Below, one piece after another: positions 5,062-57,120 of a stretch of DNA of 64,000 nucleotides. A program made the translations under genes and the position numbers. Origin of the DNA: Heptranchias perlo (Eukaryota); contig NC_090325.1 of NCBI RefSeq assembly GCF_035084215.1, forward strand, positions 117,738,001-117,802,000. The letters run 5' to 3'. The notes beneath the pieces are model-generated. The model was given only the letters and a program-made list of their open reading frames with translations. It ran no database searches and was not told the DNA's origin. The first letter of the stretch is position 1. Each line of letters starts with the position of its first letter.

Positions 5062-5946
5062 TTAGTGGTACCATCATTCAACCAGTACCAGGATGTTATG
5101 ACCATACAATGTAGACTTCACTGTCACACTAAAAATTAATCATGCCTGGTATGAATCATGTGAAATCATGACCTACTTTTGCTTCAGCTGAAACATCATT
5201 ACACTCTCATGACCAATCTGCTGCCAGGCTGCCAACCTTTGCTGTCTACACTTTCCGATCTCCTAACTCATCAGCTCCATAGCTATGTTGTGCACCACTA
5301 AAATTTCAGTAATGAAATCTTGTACAGATTACAGAAAACTAGCAAATCTGCTGCGGTACTGTTAATAATCTTTTTTTAGAAATTGAATTGAATGCACATC
5401 TACAGCTAATGACCTTGTGCGTTCATAAGGTTGCTTTTGAAATCAACTGGCAGGGTTTTCTAGACATAGGCCTTTCGGATACCTCAAAGGTCAGACATGA
5501 ACCTGCAATTTGAGCAGTAATTTTACTTTAAAATGTCACTGACCTCAATAATAGGGATTTGATGACTGCTTCTTGAAGTTTAATAATGGATTGTAATGGT
5601 GCCTATACCTGCACCACCCATTGCTATTAGTCGATACTCTGCCAGATCTCCAATTTCATTGATTCACAGCATTATCACTAAAACATATTGTTCCAGTAAG
5701 GAAGCTGAGATGAGTTCAATGGTCAACAGTATTGTCAATGAAATGCATTGGACTAATCAGTAAGTGCATAATTGATGCATGGCCACAAAAAATTGTATGT
5801 GTGTATAATATGTATATAATATGAGAGAGAGAATAATGGGCAACTGTGAGTGATTGCAAACAAATGTGTTCTCAAGGGGTTTGGGTAACATCATAAACCA
5901 GGAGAGTGAAGCTTAAGCAGTTGGTCATCAGGCTCCCAAGGGACTT

Positions 5947-6002
5947 TAAAAAAAAATTCATTCATGGGATGTGGGCATCGCTGGCAAAGCCAGCATTTAT
6001 TC
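5947..6002 (-). mobile_element. 3' terminal fragment of the tRNA-headed LINE family or of a SINE sharing its tail
   Basis: Reverse complement matches AATAAATGCTGGC...CCAGCGATGCCCACATCCCATGAA at 38549-38590. Confidence 0.75.
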
Positions 6003-6929
6003 CACATATCCACTATAATATTCTTGAGACTTGCTGCTTTTTTCCCTCACCAATCCTGGATTTTAACCTTTCCTCCCAATGGAGAAGCTAGCATTTTATT
6101 GAAGTGCACTCCACTACCACCATCTCTTAGAGACCAACACGGAAAGCAATTTTTAAAAAAAAGAAAATCACCGCAATTTTAAAAAATTCTCACTGTTGTG
6201 GTTTATATAATCAATTGACACCTCTGTTGTATTATATGCTTGTAGTATGCTCCTTGTTTATATGTAAAAACAAAGCAAAAATGAGGAAATTCAATGGACT
6301 ACTTTAGGGAACTTTTTAAATTAACAAATACTTACTTGCTCAGGAGAAAAAGTTCAAGTATTATATGCCCAAGGTCCTGTTTTTAATATTTGTGCAAAAC
6401 TATAGCAATAAAATTCTAAGAGCGCCCCAGATAAAGCCATGTGATTTAAGTGTAGAGTTCAATGTATCAAACCAGTTTCTGTTCTGAAAGGTGAAAATCC
6501 TCTGCAGGAGTTGATGGAGAGGGAGTTTGGAGGGATTAGACTCCCTTCAACAATTGCTGTAGGGCTGAATCTGAATCCTCCTTTCCTAGTCAGGGACAAT
6601 GTTGTGGCATCTAAGGCTGCCCAGGAAAAGAGTGCAGTAATTTTTATTATTGGGTTTCATGGAAAGGTGGAGTTGCAGGGGTGAAGTTGGAATTATATTA
6701 AAAGTTCGCCTCGCATTTTATATCATTGAAGTACTTTTGGGCTGAATGTCAGCTTCTATTTATAATGTTGATTTTATAAATAGTGGCTGGTTTTAAAATC
6801 TAACATTTTATTCACAAAAAAATTGTGTTCTGACTGTAATCTGTATATTGTCAGATTCCATCTAAATACAACATAATGTTTCAGAAGCCTGACCACACTT
6901 TGTGGGCAGTGTGTTACTGTTTAATCTTG

Positions 6930-18000: not shown

Positions 18001-19390
18001 TAGACTGGTGTTTATTTTGTTACACTGCTTGTAGTACAGTTTTCCCGATTTGCTCCATAATGAAAGCAAATGCTCCATGGTACCTTGTATCCCTTTCCTC
18101 CTATTGTAAAATACACGGAGATGTATGTCTTCCTGAAAGTACGGAGCGCCAAATAGTTGCAATTAGTTGAGACATCTGTCTTCGACAACTTTTTGAACAA
18201 AGTATGTGGGAAAGTAATTTTACCTAAAACGAAAAGAAATGGCCTTCAAGCCAGCCTTAACTGAAATCAACATATCATTTACCTTGGCTGTGGTTAAAAG
18301 CATTTGTGGTGTATTTGAATTTTTTTTCGTGGTTGTGGTTGTGCATGTGGGCCGTGACTGTTCTTCAGCCCTGACAGCCACAAGAGCACCCTCTGCTGTG
18401 TCAATGGGATGTTTGTTTTTTCCACCATCCACTGTTGGGTACTTAAGCCTGTGAAATCCTTCACTTTGTGTCCAGTAGAACATGGATTTGTGGTCACCCA
18501 TCAGACTGTGCTTTGTTAGTACCCCATGATACAGAAGTGAGGGGAAGGTGTTGAGACTAACTGTGATACCAAGCCCAGCTGCTGAGATGCTCTTTTATTG
18601 CCCAAGTCACTTTAGGATTTATTTCAAACTGCAGAGCCAAAAGCTAATTCTGTTGGGTTGGTGGATGGGGGAAACAAAAACTCTTTGGGATGTATAAAAT
18701 AAATCCCTTTCTGAAAGTGAACTGGTTTAGGTCTGGTTATATATTTCCTCAAGATTTTGAAATTGTTCTGGTGTGGTGACATTCTTTGTCAAGCTACAGT
18801 ATACACTGGTACAATTTTTTTTAAAAAGCTTTTTAAGCACTGTTCATACTGTTTGAGCATCTTAGAAATGTTAGTTCAGGTGCTGTTTGATTTTTAAGGT
18901 GATCTGCCAGTTAATACAGTAGATCAAAAAGCAAATTTGAGTTTTTTTTCCTTTTATGAATTTTTTTTGTATTCAGTTAGGTGAAACTGAGAGTGCTAGG
19001 GAATGGGGAACTTCCCATTTCAGGCACCAAGTGAAAGCATTAAGCACTCCCAGGTCAATTATAGCATGGTCAGATACAGAGTGAAGCTCCTTCTACTCTG
19101 CAGGAGCAATGTGCCTCAGCTCCAATTTCAGAAGTTTACCCCCCCCCCCCCCCCCCCGGCTGCACTTGGGAGACAGTTTCCGTTTCCATTTCCCTTGCCA
19201 GCGATCATGTGCTCTGTCATGGGTGAGATGGTCAATTTTGAGATATATCCACTAGGAACTGGACTGAACCTGGGCAAACTCATTTCACATACAATCAGCT
19301 GACACAGGAAAAGTTAATCTCATCAGTCTGCCAGAGATGAAAAACCAGTGTCTAACACAGTGTGCCACCTAATAGTCTCTCTCACTACAT

Positions 19391-19465
19391 AGTGGTTATG
19401 TTACTGGACTAGTAATCCAGAGGCCTGGACTAAAAATCCAGGGTCATGAGTTCAAATCCCGCCAC
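19391..19465 (+). promoter_or_regulatory. tRNA-derived internal Pol III promoter (partial A box and B box)
   Basis: AGTGGTTA (19391) resembles the 3' half of an A box/D-loop. GAGTTCAAATCCC (19448-19460) fits the B box consensus GWTCRANNC. Confidence 0.7.
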
Positions 19466-22400
19466 GGCAGCTGGGAAATTTAAATTCAATTAATTAAATA
19501 AAATCTGGAATTAAAATACTAGTATCAGTAATGGCCATGAAACTACCAGATTGTCGTAAAAACCCATCTGGTTCACTAATGCCCTTTAGGGAAGGAAACC
19601 TGCCGTCCTTACCCGGTCTGGCCTATATGTGACTCCAGACCCACAGCAATGTGGTTGATTTTTAATTGCCCTCTGAAATGGCCTAGCAAGCCACTCAGTT
19701 GTAAAATCTCGCTTAAAAAAAAAAGTCATAATAGGAATAAAATCAGACGGACCACTCGGCATCGGAACACGGCACCAGACACGACAAAGGCAAACCAAGC
19801 CCAGTCGACCCTGCAAAGTCCTTCTCACTAACATCTGGGGACTTGTGCCAAAATTGGGAGAGCTGTCCCACAGACCAGTCAAGCAACAGCCTGACATAGC
19901 CATACTCACAGAATCATACCTTTCAGCCAACGTCCCAGACTCTTCCATCACCATCCCTGGGTATGTCCTGTCCCACTGGCAGGACAGACCGACCAGTGGT
20001 GGCGGTACAGTGATATACAGTCAGGAGGGAGTGGCCCTGGGAGTCCTCAACATTGACTCTGGACCCCATGAAATCTCATGGCATCAGGTCAAACATGGGC
20101 AAGGCAACCTCCTGCTAATTACCATTTACTGCCCTCCCTCAGTTGATGAATCAGTCCTCCTCCATGTTGAACACCACTTGGAGGAAGCACTGAGGGTAGC
20201 AAGGGCACAGAACGTACTCTGGGTGGGGGACTTCAATGTCCATCACCAAGAGTGGCTCGGTAGCACCACTACTGACTGAGCTGGCCGAGTCCTGAAGGAC
20301 ATAGCTGCCAGTCTGGGCCTGAGGCAGGTGGTGAGCGAACCAACACAAGGGAAAAACTTACTTGCCCTCGTCCTCACCAATCTACCTGTCGCAAATGCAT
20401 CTGTCCATGACAGCATTGGTAGGAGTGACCACCGCACAGTCCTCGTGGAGACGAAGTCCTGTCTTCGCACTGAGGACACCATCCAACGTGTTGTGTGGCA
20501 CTACCACCGTGCTAAATGGGATAGATTCAGAACAGATCTAGCAGCTCAAAACTGGGCATCCATGAGGCGCTGTGGGCCATCAGGAGCAGCAGAATTGTAT
20601 TCCAGCACAATCTGTAACCTCATGGCCCGGCATATTCCTCACTCTACCATTACCAACAAGCCAGGGATCAACTCTGGTTCAATGAGGAATGTGGAAGAGC
20701 ATGCCAGGAGCAGCACCAGGCATACCTAAAAATGAGGTGCCAACCTGGTGAAGTTACAACTCAGGACTACATGCAGGTGGAAGCAACATGCTATAGACAG
20801 CGCTAAGCGATTCCACAACCAACGGAACAGATCAAAGCTCTGCAGTCCTGCCACATCCAGTCGTGAATGGTGGTGGACAATTAAACAAGTAACAGGAGGG
20901 TCTGTAAACATCCCCATCCTCAATAATGGCGGAGTCCAGCACGTGAGTGCAAAAGACAAGGCTGAAGCATTTGCAACCTTCAGCCAGAAGTGCCGAGTGG
21001 ATGATCCATCTCGGCCTCCTCCCGATATCACCACCATCACAGAAGCCAGTCTTCAGCCAATTCAATTCACTCCATATGATATCAAGAAACTGCTGAGTGC
21101 ATTGGATACAGCAAAGGCTATGGGCCCCGACAACTTCCCGGCTATAGTGCTGAAGACTTGTGCTCCAGAACTAGCTGCGCCTCTAGCCAAGCTGTTCCAG
21201 TACAGCTACGACACTGGCATCTACCCGACAATGTGGAAAATTGCTCAGGTATGTCCTGTCCACAGAAAGCAGGACAAATCCAATCCAGCCAATTACCGCC
21301 CCATCAGTCTACTCTCAATCATCAGCAAAGTGATGGAAGGTGTCGTCGACAGTGCTATCAAGCGGCACTTACTCACCAATAACCTGACCCCCGATGCTCA
21401 GTTTGGGTTCCGCCGGGACCACTTGGCTCCAGACCTCATTACAGTCTTGGTCCAAACATGGACAAAAGAGCTGAATTCCAGAGGTGTGGTGAGAGTGACT
21501 GCCCTTGACATCAAGGCAGCATTTGACCGAGTGTGGCACCAAGGAGCCCTAGTAAAATTGAAGTCAATGGGAATCAGGGGAATAACACTCCAGTGGCTGG
21601 AGTCGTACCTAGCACAAAGGAAGATTGTAGTGGTTGTTGGAGGTTAATCATCTCAGCTCCAGGGCATTGCTGCAGGAGTTCCTCAGGGCAGTGTCCTAGG
21701 CCCAACCATCTTCAGCTGCTTCATCAATGACCTTCCTTCCAACATAAGGTCAGAAATGGGGATGTTTGCTGATGATTGCACAGTGTTCCGTTCCATTCGC
21801 AACCCCTCAAATAATGAAGCAGTCCGAGCCCGCATGCAACAAGACCTGGACAACATCCAGGCTTGGGCTGATAAGTGGCAAGTAACATTCACGCCAGACA
21901 AGTGCCAGGCAATGACCATCTCCAACAAGAGTGTCTAACCACCTCCCCTTGATATTCAATGGCATTACCATCGCCGAATCCCCCACCATCAACATCCTGG
22001 GGGCCGCCATTGACCAGAAACTTAACTGGACCAGCCATATAAATACTGTGGCTACAAGAGTAGTTCAGAGGCTGTGTATTCTGCGGCGAGTGACTCACCT
22101 CCTGACTCCCCAAAACCTTTCCACCATCTACAAGTCACAAGTCAGGAGTATGATTGAATACTCTGCACTTGCTTGACAACACTCAAGAAACTCGACAACA
22201 TCCAGGACAAAGCATCCCGCTTGATTGGCACCCCATCCACCACCCTAAACATTCACTCCCTTCACCACCGGCGCACAGTGGCTGCAGTGTGTACCATCCA
22301 CAGGATGCACTGCAGCAACTCACCAATGCTTCTTCGCCAGCACCTCCCAAACCCGCGACCTCTACCGCCTGGAAGGCCAAGAGCAGCAGGCACATGGGAA

Positions 22401-22652
22401 CAACACCACCTGCACGTTCCCCTCCAAGTCTCACACCATCCCGACTTGGAAATATATCGCCGTTCCTTCATCATTGCTGGGTCAAAATCCTGGAACTCCC
22501 CTCCTAACAGCACTGTTGGAGAACCTTCACCACACGGACTGCAGCAGTTCAAGAAGGCGGCTCATCACCACCTTCTCAAGGGCAATTAGGGATGGGCAAT
22601 AAATGCCGGCCTCGCCAGGGATGCCCACATCCCATCAACGAATTTTTTTTTT
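19391..22652 (+). mobile_element. Near full-length non-LTR retrotransposon (CR1/L2-group APE + RT) with tRNA-like 5' head and no ORF1; decayed by stops and frameshifts
   Basis: APE motifs LTNIWGL, PDIAILTES, VGDFN and SDH (19815-20440). RT motifs [29 protein letters not shown] and MFADD. A 3' hairpin GGGATGGGCA...TGCCCACATCCC is followed by a T run. Confidence 0.9.
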
Positions 22653-23375
22653 AAATTGGCTCACCATCATCTTCGAAGCCTGTTCTGGATGAACTCTTAA
22701 ATCTTCTCTCCAGTTCTTAGGTATCATGGCATGTTTGAAAACTTCTTGCTCATTCCAGATTTTTCCAGAGTTTGATTTTTGAAAAGTTAATTGCAATTTT
22801 CCCAATTGCGATTGAAAAGCTATGGTATTACATCTATTTTAAAAATGAACATACCAACTCTAACCATTTTTAGCACCAAATCCTCACACCAGTTTATTAA
22901 ATTGACGTTGGCTTAATAACTACAGTCCTTTTACTTGAGAAGATGCTTTGTTGGTGTTTAAAAAGAAATGATCATTGTTTTTTGCAGAATTGTTAAATTT
23001 TAATTTCCTTTCCTAAAATAAAAGTTGCAAGTTGCAAAGCAACGGAGCAAAGTGTATAAGAAAGAAGATCTGCTACGAGCACTTTTACAAACTTAATGTT
23101 GCTTTAAAAAGGATCATAAAACACTGCATAAAATTAAATTTGGTTTTTAAATACAGATTATTTAGTTCCATCTCTGAAAGTTATATCATCTTTGTAATTA
23201 ATTCTATGTAATTCTATGAAAGCTTCGTGATCAAAAATGTAATGGTTAGTTATTTAGACTACCTAAATTAGACACGTGCATTTTTAAAATTTTGTTTTTA
23301 TTATATCACACATTTTAAGTTATGAATTGTTGCTTTTTTCAGTTTCCATTGACTTACTTTCTGTTCTCATTCCAG

Positions 23376-30360: not shown

Positions 30361-31235
30361 CAGTAAAAAAATTAAGAGTTTTAATAAATTTTATATTACC
30401 AAAATGGAAGGATTACTTTCATTTATATAGCCCATCATTATGTCATCAAAGCGTGTCACATAATGACGTACCTTTGCATTGCAATACAGTCTATTTCCGA
30501 TGATTGAAAGTTGTCTTTTTGCTAAAACAAAAAATCCAGATTTGAATTTATCAGGAGTGGACTAACTATTTTGCCAACAAAAAAAACTTTTAATTTTAGA
30601 ATGGTGAGTTTATAAATAAAAGGTACACTTTGAATCCTCCAACTGAGTCTATTTTATATCTATAATATATTAAAAATGGTGAGTGTCTGCAACAAGGCCT
30701 TGTGCCTGTAGTTGGCACTATTAGGGTCATGCTTTGTGACTCATGAAGTACAGTGAAGCTCAACTATGTGAAAGACCCACTGTATTGTCCTTGAGCTTCC
30801 TATCTCATAGGTTTAAGGGGAGGTGTGAAGTAAAAAAGCTAATAGTTGGAGAACTCATCTTCTCCCGTAGCATCCTCTTTTCCTTGGACAAACATGATCA
30901 AAGCTTTACTGATGATCACGAAAATTTTATCCTTCACCCCTCCTGCGAGCATCTCAAAACTTGCAACATCTCGATTGCCATTTTGATAGCTCACTTGAGC
31001 TAATGCTAATGAGGATACACCAGTGAACCCCTTTGAAAGGAGAATATGTATTAATTTTAAAAGTTGGCACGACTGTTATCAACTCTGAAGTCCGGACTGC
31101 GGTCTTCAACTTAATGTGAAACTTCACCCACACAGCTTGCACCCTGAAGTAATAGTAGCAACATTGGAAACCCTACATCCAATTGATCAGTGAAATTTGA
31201 ACAATTCAACTCCCACCCCATCACTGAGCAACAAA

Positions 31236-33660
31236 CTTGGAACGAGCGACCACAACATGGTTGAATTCCATATCCAATTAGAGGGTGAGAAGGTTGATTC
31301 TCAAACAAGCGTACTGAGCTTGAATAAAGGAGACTATGATGGTATGAGAGCGGAATTGATTAAAGTGGACTGGGAAAATAGATTAAAGGGTAAGACGGTA
31401 CATGAGCAGTGGTGTTCATTTAGGGAGTTATTTTACAACTTTCAAAATAAATATATTCCACTGAGGAAAAAAGGGTGTAAAAGAAATGACAGCCATCCGT
31501 GGCTAAGTAAAGAAATCAAGGATAGTATCCGACTAAAAACAAGGACATATAAGGTAGCCAAACTTAGTGGGAGGATAGAAGATTGGGAATTCTTCAAAAG
31601 ACAGCAAAAAGTAACTAAAGGATTGATTAAGAAAGGGAAGTTAGATGATGAAAAGAAATTAGCAAAAAATATAAAAACAGATAGCAAGAGTTTCTACAGT
31701 TATATAAAAAGAAAAAGGGTGGCTAAGGCAAACATAGGTCCCTTAGAGGATGAGACCGGGAAATTAATGGTGGGAAACATGGAGATGGCAAAAATGCTGA
31801 ACAAATATTTTGTTTCAGTCTTTACAGTAGAGGACACTAAGAATATCCCAACACTGGACAAACAGGGGACTCTCGGGGGGGAGGAGCTAAATACGATTAA
31901 AATCACTCAGGAGATGGTACTCAGTAAAATAATGGGACTCAAGGCGGATAAATCCCCTGGACCTGATGGCTTCCATCCTAGGGTCTTGAGGGAAGTGGCA
32001 GTAGGGATTGTGGATGCTTTGGTGATAGTTTTCCAAAATTCCCTGGACTCAGGAGAGGTCCCGGCAGATTGGAAAACTGCTAATGTAACACCGTTATTTA
32101 AAAAGGGTAGTAGGCAGAAGGCTGGAAATTATAGGCCAGTTAGCTTAACATCTGTGGTGGGTAAAATTTTGGAGTCTATTATTAAGGAGACAGTAACGGA
32201 ACATTTAGATAAGCATAATTTAATAGGACAAAGTCAGCATGGCTTTATGAAGGGGAAGTCATGTCTGACAAATTTGCTTGAGTTCTTCGAGGATATAACG
32301 TATAGGGTGGATAAAGGGGAACCAGTGGACATAGTGTATTTAGACTTCCAGAAGGCATTCGACAAGGTGCCACATAAAAGATTATTACTTAAGATAAAAA
32401 ATCACGGGATTGGGGGTAATATTCTGGCATGGGTGGAGGATTGGTTATCGAACAGGAAGCAGAGAGTTGGGATAAATGGTTCATTTTCGGACTGGCAACC
32501 AGTAACCAGTGGTGTTCCACAGGGGTCGGTGCTGGGTCCCCAACTCTTTACAATCTATATTAACGATTTGGAGGAGGGGACCGAGTGCAACATATCAAAA
32601 TTTGCAGATGATACAAAGATGGGAGGGAAAGTAGAGAGTGAGGAGGACATAAAAAACCTGCAAGGGGATATAGACAGGCTGGGTGAGTGGGCGGAGATTT
32701 GGCAGATGCAATATAATATTGGAAAATGTGAGGTTATGCACTTTGGCAGGAAAAAATCAGAGAGCAAGTTATTTTCTTAATGGCGAGAGACTGGAAAGTA
32801 CTGCAGTACAAAGGGATCTGGGGGTCCTAGTGCAAGAAAATCAAAAAGTTGGTATGCAGGTGCAGCAGGTGATCAAGAAAGCCAACGGAATGTTGGCTTT
32901 TATTGCTAGGGGGATAGAATATAAAAACAAGGAGGTATTGCTGCAGTTATATAAGGTATTGGTGAGACCGCACCTGGAATACTGCATACAGTTTTGGTCT
33001 CCATACTTAAGAAAAGACATACTTGCTCTCGAGGCAGTACAAAGAAGGTTCACTCGGTTAATCCCGGGGATGAGGGGGCGGACATATGAGGAGAGGTTGA
33101 GTAGATTGGGACTCTACTCATTGGAGTTCAGAAGAATGAGAGGCGATCTTATTGAAACATATAAGATTGTGAAGGGTCTTGATCGGGTGGATGCAGTAAG
33201 GATGTTCCCAAAGATGGGTGAAACTAGAACTAGGGGGCATAATCTTGGAATAAGGGGCTGCTCTTTCAAAACTGAGATGAGGAGAAACTTCTTCACTCAG
33301 AGGGTGGTCGGTCTGTGGAATTTGCTGCCCCAGGAAGCTGTGGAAGCTACATCATTAGATAAATTTAAAACAGAAATAGACAGTTTCCTAGAAGTAAAGG
33401 GAATTAGGGGTTATGGGGAGCGGGCAGGAAATTGGACATGAAGCTGAGTTCGGATCGGTCAATGCCCTGTGGGTGGCGGAGAGGGCCCAGGGGCTATGTG
33501 GCCGGGTCCTGCTCCGACTTCTTGTGTTCTTTAGATTTGTGGTTGGGATCAGATCAGCCATGATCTTATTGAATGGCGGAGCAGGCTCGAGGGGCCGATT
33601 GGCCTACTCCTGCTCCAATTTCTTATGTTCTTATGTTCTTATGTTCTTATGTTCTTATGT
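31236..33660 (+). mobile_element. Young CR1 LINE, 5'-truncated, ORF2 nearly intact
   Basis: ORF 31197-32780 ([37 protein letters not shown]) joins 32683-33441 through one frameshift near the A run at ~32751. The tail is (TTATGTTC)n. Confidence 0.97.
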
Positions 33661-36924: not shown

Positions 36925-38603
36925 TCAACCATCTTCAGCCAGAAGTGCCGAGTGGATGATCCATCTCGGCCTCCTCCCGATATCACCACCATCACAGAAG
37001 TCAGTCTTCAGCCAATTCGATTCACTCCACATGATATCTAGAAACGGCTGAGTGCACTGGATACAGCAAAGGCCATGGGCCCCGACAACATCCCGGCTGT
37101 AGTGCTGAAGACATGTGCTCCAGAACTAGCTGCGCCTCTAGCCAAATTGTTCCAGTACAGCTGCAACACTGGCATCTACCCGATAATGTGGAAAATTGCC
37201 CAGGTATGTTCTGTCCACAAAAAGCAGGACAAATCCAATCCGGCCAATTACCGCCCCATCAGTCTACTCTCAATCATCGGCAAAGTGATGGAAGGTGTCA
37301 TCGACAGTGCTATCGAGCGGCACTTGCTCACCAATAACCTGCTCACCGATGCTCAGTTTGGGTTCCACCAGGACCACTCGGCTCCAGACCTCATTACAGC
37401 CTTGGTCCAAACATGGACAAAAGAGCTGAATTCCAGAGGTGAGGTGAAAGTGACTGCCCTTGACATCAAGGCAGCATTTGACCGAGTGTGGCACCAAGGA
37501 GCCCTAGTAAAATTGAAGTCAATGGGAATCGGGGAAAACTCTCCAGTGGCTGGAGTCGTACCTAGCACAAAGGAAGATGGTAGTGGTTGTTGTAGGCCAA
37601 TCATCTCAGCCCCAGGACATTGCTGCAGGAGTTATTCAGGGCAGTGTCTTAAGCCCAACCATCTTCAGCTGCTTCATCAATGACCTTCCCTCCATCATAA
37701 GATCAGAAATGGGGATGTTCGCGATGATTGCACAGTGTTCAGTTCCATTCGCAACCACTCATATAATGAAGCAGTCCGTGCCCGCATGCAACAAGACCTG
37801 GACAACATCCAGGCTTGGGCTGATAAGTGGCAAGTAACATTCACGCCAGACAGGTGCCAGCAATGACCATCTCCAACAAGAGTGTCTAACCACCTCAACT
37901 TGACATTCAACGGCATTACCATCGCCGAATCCCCCACAATCAACATCCTGGAGGTCACCGTTGACCAGAAACTTAACTGGACCAGCCACATAAATACTGT
38001 GGCTACAAGAGCAGGTCAGAGGCTGGGTATTCTGTGGCGAGTGACTCCCCAAATCCTTTCCACCATCTGCAAGACACAAGTCAGGAGTGTGATGGAATAC
38101 TCTGCACTTGCCTGTATGAGTGCAGCTCCAACAACACTCAAGAAACTCGACACCATCCAGGACAAAGCATCCCGCTTGATTGGCACCCCATCCACCACCC
38201 TAAACATTCACTCCCTTCACCACTGGCGCACAGTGGCTGCAGTGTGTACCATCCACAGGATGCACTACAGCAACTCGCCAAGGCTTCTTCGACAGCACCT
38301 CCCAAACCCGCGACCTCTACCACCTAGAAGGATAAGGGCAGCAGGCACATGGGAACACCACCTGCACGTTCCCCTCCAAGTCACACACCATCCCGACTTG
38401 AAATATATCGCCATTCCTTCATCGTCGCTGGATCAAAATCCTGGAACTCCCTTCCTAACAGCACTGTGGGAGAATCTTCACCACACTGACTGCAGCGGTT
38501 CAAGAAGGTGGCTCACCCCCACCTTCTCGAGGGCAATTAGGGATGGGCAATAAATGCTGGCCTCGCCAGCGATGCCCACATCCCATGAACGAATAAAAAA
38601 AAT
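36925..38603 (+). mobile_element. Second, 5'-truncated copy of the tRNA-headed LINE family
   Basis: Aligns closely to 20975-22643 (SQKCRVDDPSRPPPDITTITE...DIKAAFDRVWHQ...) and ends in an A run. Confidence 0.93.
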
Positions 38604-56384: not shown

Positions 56385-57120
56385 GGAGAAGTGAGAGTAG
56401 CTATCTTCAACGTCAAGGCAGCATTCAACCAGATATGGTACCAGGGAGCCCTAGCAGAATGGAGCAGAATGGAACTCAATGGGAGTCAAAGGGAAATCCT
56501 CCAAAGGCTGGAGTCATACCTGATAAAAAGGAAGATGGTTGTGAGTGCGGAAGCCTGTCACCACAGCCCTAGGATGTCACTGCAGAAGTTCCTTGGGGAA
56601 ACACCCTTAGCCCCACCATCTTCAATTGCTTCATTAAAGATGTTGCCTCCCATCCATAAGGTTCACTGATGATTTCACAATGTTCAGCTCTATTAACAAC
56701 TCCTTTGATAATCAAGTAGCCCATGCCAACTTACAACAGGACTTGGATAATACCTAGACTTGGGCTGATGAATAGCAGGTAGCTTTCGCACCACTTAAGT
56801 GCCAGGTAATGACCATCTTGATAAAGAGAAAGCTCAGCCACCTCCCTTTGACCTTCAATGACCACCATTGCCAAGTCCCCCACCATCAACATCTTGGGGG
56901 TCACCATTGATCTGATGCTGAACTGGACAAGAATAGGATTAAAGGCAGCTCACACAAACAATTCTGACATTCCACCACGTATACTCTTTCCCTGCCCACA
57001 GCTATATCAACACTGTGGCTACAAGATCAGGACTGAGGCTGGATACTCTGGAACGAATGGCTCACATCCTGAGCCCTCAATTTCTCTCCACTCTCTACAA
57101 GGCTCAGTTCAGGAGTGTCA
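56385..57120 (+). mobile_element. Old decayed relative of the tRNA-headed LINE family (RT region)
   Basis: EVRVAIFNVKAAFNQIWYQGAL and SPTINILGVTID match 21490-21550 and 21975-22015. Confidence 0.8.

Follow-up and report, generated by a model that had tools for sequence, protein, structure and literature searches.

An abundant 3.3-kb LINE family of the shark Heptranchias perlo begins with a tRNA-Ser-derived head, and head, leader, ORF and A tail have been copied as a single unit thousands of times. RNA polymerase III (Pol III) normally makes just short non-coding RNAs. Because this family has a tRNA-derived promoter, almost no T-runs and no usable AUG, we consider it probable that it is transcribed by Pol III from end to end and that its protein is made from a non-AUG start.

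One decayed copy of the family lies at about 19386-22655 on the forward strand of the window, by which we mean the whole 64,000-nucleotide stretch analyzed (GCF_035084215.1, NC_090325.1, positions 117,738,001 to 117,802,000). An earlier note on this DNA had let the element start at 19391; the start is corrected to about 19386-19388. The head of this copy (19388-19470) is short of the 8 to 11 nt with which the family begins, so that part of the A box is missing, and it comprises the 3' part of the A box (19388-19395), an anticodon-like arm (19404-19420), a second short arm (19425-19441) and the B box (19448-19459). It is followed by an A/T-rich leader spacer common to all full-length copies (19471-19558) and by a conserved leader body (19559-19701), which by eye is nearly the same in seven published elasmobranch Zenon rows. 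The body contains two AUGs, one at 19649 that is out of frame in most copies and one at 19678 that is in frame and then meets stops. The candidate region for a non-AUG start (19679-19713) consists of a predicted small hairpin with a 7-nt loop (19679-19693), an in-frame TAA (19702-19704) and a conserved GCT (19711-19713), at which the reading frame opens.

The ORF encodes a basic N-terminal extension (19714-19823; a slipped A-run and a 2-nt deletion in the window copy), an APE-type endonuclease domain (19824-20450; Pfam PF03372 and PF14529) and a reverse transcriptase (RT) domain with approximate bounds 21270-22030 (PF00078), which contains a FADD motif (21765-21776). Both domains were detected by Pfam in the frame fragments of the window copy, and the nearest solved structures to the RT protein are L1 ORF2p and R2. 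The ORF stop (22587-22589) and a short 3' UTR with an AATAAA at 22598-22603 together occupy 22587-22643, and the copy ends in T10 and A3 (22643-22655), a slipped form of the family's T plus A8-10 tail. The window copy is dead: it carries six frameshifting indels from 19714 onward as well as stops, and its RT is broken by a stop and a frameshift. As the earlier note had pointed out, the B box is so close to the LTNIWG endonuclease motif (19824-19838), with 365 nt in between, that no space is left for an ORF1.

A second, 5'-truncated copy with an A8 tail lies at 36933-38602 (+), and its part from 36933 to 38594 is 91.9% identical to 20978-22643 of the first copy. The window also contains an older RT fragment of this Zenon-type family (56391-57116, +; 69-75% identity) and a lone 3' end of it (5945-6007, -). 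A canonical CR1-type ORF2, close to intact, is split between two frames, of 528 and 255 codons, that overlap (31194-33441, +), and many more CR1-like fragments lie throughout the window.

When the intact head of the family was aligned with five tRNA-Ser genes of the same genome, scores of 52 to 63 were obtained, compared to maxima of 43 to 51 for 500 shuffles each; the scores against a tRNA-Thr gene and a tRNA-Arg gene were 45 and 40, respectively. A box, anticodon arm and B box correspond in the tRNA-Ser alignment. Neither ARAGORN nor Rfam called the head as a tRNA. The leader body presumably resembles the Deu domain of DeuSINEs. Seven loci (L381, L383, L384, L386, L389, L397, L403) have heads in which about 21-23 nt between A and B box have been lost; this recurrent deletion takes out one of the two arms that resemble each other and shortens the spacing of the boxes. 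Separately, at least 89 tRNA-Ser-type anticodon-arm motifs are spread over contig C23 from 1.6 to 20.7 Mb (311 genome-wide), which represent either tRNA genes in a dispersed cluster or copies of a repeat that carries a tRNA.

The head-ORF architecture is an established property of the family. With a 621-nt query covering head and endonuclease, 6,033 candidates were obtained from the same genome; each of the 39 non-self matches that were scored extends across the junction, at 92-95% identity. Of the three outcomes that the earlier note had named as refuting its proposal, none was observed. At 30 of the 39 fetched loci the element is unbroken, 3.2-3.3 kb long and bounded by the same two ends, and these 30 full-length copies differ by about 3% from their own majority sequence. 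Since a junction-spanning query favors joined copies, copies were also picked with the head alone and with the endonuclease alone (locus L042, a duplicate of L043, was left out of most counts). Among 29 endonuclease-only picks, 14 reach the head and 15 end inside the leader; when breakpoints were compared, none of the 29 shared an alternative 5' extension, one duplicated pair excepted. No ORF1 or longer form, which would have spoken against the proposal, was thus found upstream of the leader of about 350 nt in these 29 copies. Exact 21-mers of the head and of the endonuclease start occur 4,790 and 7,985 times genome-wide, and the reversed controls 0 times.

In 21 of the 30 full-length copies, 10 or 11 of the 11 family nucleotides before 19388 are kept, and therefore 5' starts cluster at the tRNA-like +1. 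Target site duplications (TSDs) of at least 6 nt were found for 1 of the 30 copies, so that no duplication brackets the window copy; the suggestion to place the junction inside TSDs failed for this reason, and TSDs are uninformative as a boundary test. Their rarity is the one observation in keeping with chance adjacency or nesting, that is, a SINE that happens to lie beside a 5'-truncated LINE. We regard this explanation as refuted, its probability being vanishingly small: the junction is identical in each examined copy that extends that far, whichever way the copies were picked, and it recurs in the published consensuses of five species.

Short elements that join head and tail directly occur in the same genome. 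Of 29 head-only picks, 24 continue into the endonuclease, four are short head+tail elements and one is rearranged; of 30 exact head motifs, taken from the start of the genome onward, 17 run into the ORF, seven are short head+tail elements and six are truncated or unclear. At one junction shared by short elements the whole ORF is removed at the GCT (252 exact matches), and a second junction, common to L115, L385, L389 and L400, retains the last ORF codons. Older short elements, which are 79-85% identical, show varied junctions, some again with ORF ends. Judging from these junctions, the short forms are repeated internal deletions of the LINE, in line with what the earlier note had proposed for SINEs with the same head and tail, and they have spread carrying the tRNA-like head alone.

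The family has a poly-A tail, nearly all of 83 tails consisting of T(n) plus a short A-run. One T precedes the A-run in 60 tails, two in seven, three in none and four to ten in 13. The idea that variable T-runs before the tail are a footprint of Pol III termination was rejected, since 60 of the 83 tails have a single T. The combined T+A length is near 10 throughout, and TTTTTAAAAA palindromes are common. T-elongation in ageing tails has been described (PMC8466645).

Pol III terminators in the coding strand were counted. Between 19300 and 22700 the forward strand has two runs of at least four T, the T5 at 19659-19663 and the T10 at 22643-22652, compared to 19 runs of at least four A; the earlier reading that the sense strand is free of TTTT from 19664 to 22642 is thus correct. 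The same applies to the second copy, with no T4 between 36808 and 38666. Where the family has TTCTT, a single C-to-T change has produced the T5; it is present in 2 of 30 copies, and hence private and no family trait. No T4 at all was found in 22 of 31 copies, the other nine having one or two, and the majority sequence, which also lacks a T5 at 19659, contains 0 T4 and 7 T3 versus 17 A4 and 51 A3. The sense strand is T-poor overall (19.9% T).

With protein and codon usage fixed by synonymous shuffling, 0 TTTT were observed versus 2.0-2.1 expected (P 0.088-0.098), so TTTT absence by itself is no clear excess over chance. Under the same shuffling 5 TTT were observed versus 12.1 expected (P 0.003). 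TTTT and TVTTT are minimal Pol III terminators (PMC8466645), and their combined count was 0 versus 4.4 expected (P 0.012); with uniform synonymous codons, T4 was 0 versus 5.3 expected (P 0.002), both of these tests having been picked after the first result was seen. Runs of A, C and G are at normal levels under synonymous shuffling, and depletion is confined to T-runs. The neighboring CR1 (31236-33441), which had been cited as a TTTT-rich contrast, does have eight sense-strand T4 runs; this single near-intact window copy matches the 7.7 expected from its codons and shows no depletion.

Among 100 related long ORFs, which were chosen by length from 159 loci with no similarity filter, each contains at least one T4, and the T3 ratio does not fall below 0.72, versus 0.41 in the shark family; their T3 z-scores nevertheless scatter (sd 1.35), and 5 of the 100 are as low as that of the shark family. 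Among T-poor relatives in which no head is visible, the closest, L230, contains one T4 versus 3.8 expected. For such statistics the whole family is one data point, and queries from diverged fragments for a T-run count in older subfamilies returned mostly young copies. T4 gains among the copies (7 versus 11.6 expected) are uninformative on selection, because the copies are dead. The depletion of T-runs is real in direction and moderate in strength, and the ORF may have been purged of terminators, with moderate statistics for TTT and for TTTT or TVTTT together and weak ones for TTTT alone.

Part of this evidence can also be read in terms of Pol II. It is possible, though on the unlikely side, that Pol II makes the coding RNA and that the LINE captured the 5' part of a SINE as a UTR, with the boxes serving the short derivatives or Pol II recruitment and with the T-poorness reflecting avoided splice acceptors and premature polyadenylation. 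The AATAAA, 40 nt ahead of the A tail, also fits Pol II, and Kojima 2018 (PMC5786205) describes LINEs as Pol II units and SINEs as unable to encode protein. The weak TTTT statistic and the low T4 count of the headless L230 point the same way, but the depletion in the shark family is limited to T-runs, its starts cluster at the tRNA-like +1, and the boxes are, by eye, retained in published rows of sharks and rays. Moreover, a capped RNA would have to be scanned across eight upstream AUGs to an AUG-less frame.

The intact copy L066 has 973 open codons after the in-frame TAA, which include PF03372/PF14529 and PF00078. Its first Met is residue 250, beyond the endonuclease (residues 43-246). Over lengths of 87 to 117 nt, the spacing between GCT and endonuclease is divisible by 3 in 49 of 67 copies; the exceptions are mostly pure A-run slips, and in the youngest subfamily 22 of 23 copies are in frame. 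As the frame is kept, the protein likely begins near the GCT, and at the level of sequence this is the pattern of a start that needs no AUG and has a fixed frame. Seen by eye, the GCT stands out as a conserved island; among the five species with published rows it is in frame in four, and in two dogfish rows it is out of frame. The AUG at 19649 is in frame in only 14 of 63 copies. A 1,014-codon frame from 19580 in the majority sequence was rejected as an artefact of a sample enriched for the slipped A-run of the window copy, a form that recurs across the copy tree; the T-run tests from the endonuclease start onward are unaffected by it.

The AUG at 19678 has a good context and is in frame in 96 of 100 copies. 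Codon 3 of its frame is a stop in 61 and codon 9 in 81 of the 100. A mixed mode would have Pol III make the template RNA, the protein being supplied in trans either by less frequent Pol II or read-through transcripts or by those few copies in which an AUG frame is open. Both stops are absent in 6 of 100 copies, and in 1 of 82 the frame is open through to the endonuclease. We consider such a mode very improbable, as losses of the two stops are independent of each other (Fisher p 0.46), no T context in these copies mutates more than the T in CTA, both stops are retained in the youngest intact copy, and the first of them is seen by eye in the published rows of all five species. Across the 30 full-length copies, subfamily sites included, the T in CTA is changed in 8.8% of cells, often to G, the reverse context in 4.3% and most other T contexts in 1-4%.

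For the start near the GCT, two candidate routes to the ORF remain, namely reinitiation after a tiny upstream ORF, as for human L1 ORF2, or direct entry via the hairpin at 19679-19693. The hairpin loop could pair with the GCT as in the PKI of dicistroviruses. The conserved GCT of the published rows speaks for this second route; against it, besides the out-of-frame dogfish rows, only 3 to 4 pairs are possible, a stem-breaking variant occurs in 10 of 100 copies, and no compensatory change was seen. The lack of a usable AUG suits an uncapped RNA.

If Pol III is indeed the polymerase, TFIIIC would bind the A and B boxes of the head, and Pol III would initiate about 9 nt upstream of the A box, traverse the 3.3 kb because a terminator is absent, and stop at a flanking T-run. 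Ribosomes would gain access to this RNA, which would have no cap, close to the GCT at 19711, by means of the leader structure or by reinitiation after the tiny upstream ORF, and ORF2p would prime reverse transcription at the A tail. A stronger version, which we hold to be doubtful, is a wholly Pol III retrotransposon whose uncapped 3.3-kb coding RNA would be translated without an AUG through a tRNA-mimicking structure at the leader end, the conserved "Deu" body found in SINEs then being an element for ribosome entry and the shark DeuSINEs being deletion products of this retrotransposon.

The divide between SINEs and LINEs is one between Pol III and non-coding on one side and Pol II and coding on the other. 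If Pol III transcription holds true, a shark and ray family of thousands of copies that combines a Pol III promoter with its own RT would break this rule and provide a natural example of a long, translated Pol III transcript. The function of a conserved SINE middle domain becomes testable, as such a body directly precedes an AUG-less ORF, and assays of the leader body can ask whether it acts as a promoter and whether it lets ribosomes enter. Should Pol II make the RNA, the family is still a clear case of a LINE that took its 5' end from a SINE.

By its first 400 nt, compared by eye, and its length, the family is almost certainly the elasmobranch Zenon (CR1-Zenon) LINE. The earlier note had left open whether it was catalogued; a consensus is published (Stuart et al. 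2026, PMC13343379), where elasmobranch Zenon is said to lack an ORF1, to have a poly-A tail and to have no entry as yet in a repeat repository. Both lack ORF1, encode APE and RT, end in an A tail and are 3.2-3.3 kb long. Over their first 400 nt, the seven shark and ray rows of that work, compared by eye, closely match our leader, begin with head and body, keep the A and B boxes in 7 of 7 cases with differing spacers, and contain no TTTT. The head is not described in that publication, as "tRNA", "polymerase" and "start codon" do not occur in its main text nor "tRNA" in the searched part of its supplement. A whale shark preprint mentions a CR1-Zenon-like LINE without detail. In the full-text literature searched, a tRNA-headed or Pol III-driven shark LINE was absent; Repbase, Dfam or subscription papers may describe one. 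Thus, the family is known, and its reading as a tRNA-promoter element is undescribed in the literature searched. The cited literature likewise offered no precedent for a Pol III transcript that is 3.3 kb long and coding.

Among named proteins, the best matches are fragments that lie in gene models of a sevengill shark (89%) and a manta ray (80%). Three shark gene models (P0001, P0048 and P0059; aldo-keto reductase, anoctamin-7 and sushi/vWA-like) hold pieces of the ORF at 70-89% identity, either as annotation artefacts or through exonisation. Metagenome and MAG contigs yielded distant relatives (at most about 36% over the protein), most of them AT-rich, and no tRNA-like head was visible in them. 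Many "bacterial" MAG contigs among L230-L308, e.g., of clam symbionts, bear intact animal-type LINE ORFs, which are likely host contamination.

The hagfish and coelacanth Zenon rows (PMC13343379) differ from those of sharks and rays in that their first 400 nt, by eye, have no such head and do contain T4 runs. Both this absence and the tRNA-headed DeuSINEs of elephant shark and coelacanth (PMC5499810) suggest that the common ancestor of sharks and rays likely acquired the head from a tRNA/Deu-type SINE. The DeuSINEs SacSINE1 and LmeSINE1 have, in cartilaginous fishes, a tRNA head, a conserved body and a LINE-type tail and thus the layout of the short shark elements; they are themselves short and non-coding, and their partner is given as L2-2_CM or a CR1-4_DR-like element (PMC5499810, PMC3747384).

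Compared with a SINE2 element, the family has the tRNA head with A and B boxes, its tRNA-Ser alignment scoring above all shuffles with ARAGORN and Rfam negative, and it has no internal Pol III terminator in its majority sequence, at moderate significance; short and non-coding, however, are solely the deletion derivatives and not the 3.3-kb ORF-bearing element. The T+ SINE carries a T-rich terminator between AATAAA and A tail (PMC8466645), whereas the shark family, with its mostly single T, does not. The IGR IRES of dicistroviruses starts AUG-free just after a hairpin, as the shark ORF may, with a loop that could pair with the triplet before the start (PMC3894237, PMC3517527); in contrast to this PKI, the shark hairpin offers only the few pairs given above, lacks compensatory change and tolerates the stem-breaking variant. 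RTE-1_DAn and related elements are, like the shark family, LINEs with a tRNA-like sequence (Kojima 2018, PMC5786205); they differ in belonging to the RTE clade, and that paper leaves position, promoter role and T-runs of the sequence undescribed. Bipartite non-autonomous LINEs, or SIDEs, such as Bov-A, RIME and Persaeus, the latter from lepidopteran Zenon (PMC6740152), became short by internal deletion of a LINE as the short shark elements did. In SIDEs, however, a tRNA head, if there is any, was added after the deletion, whereas in the shark family the head is already present on the coding parent.
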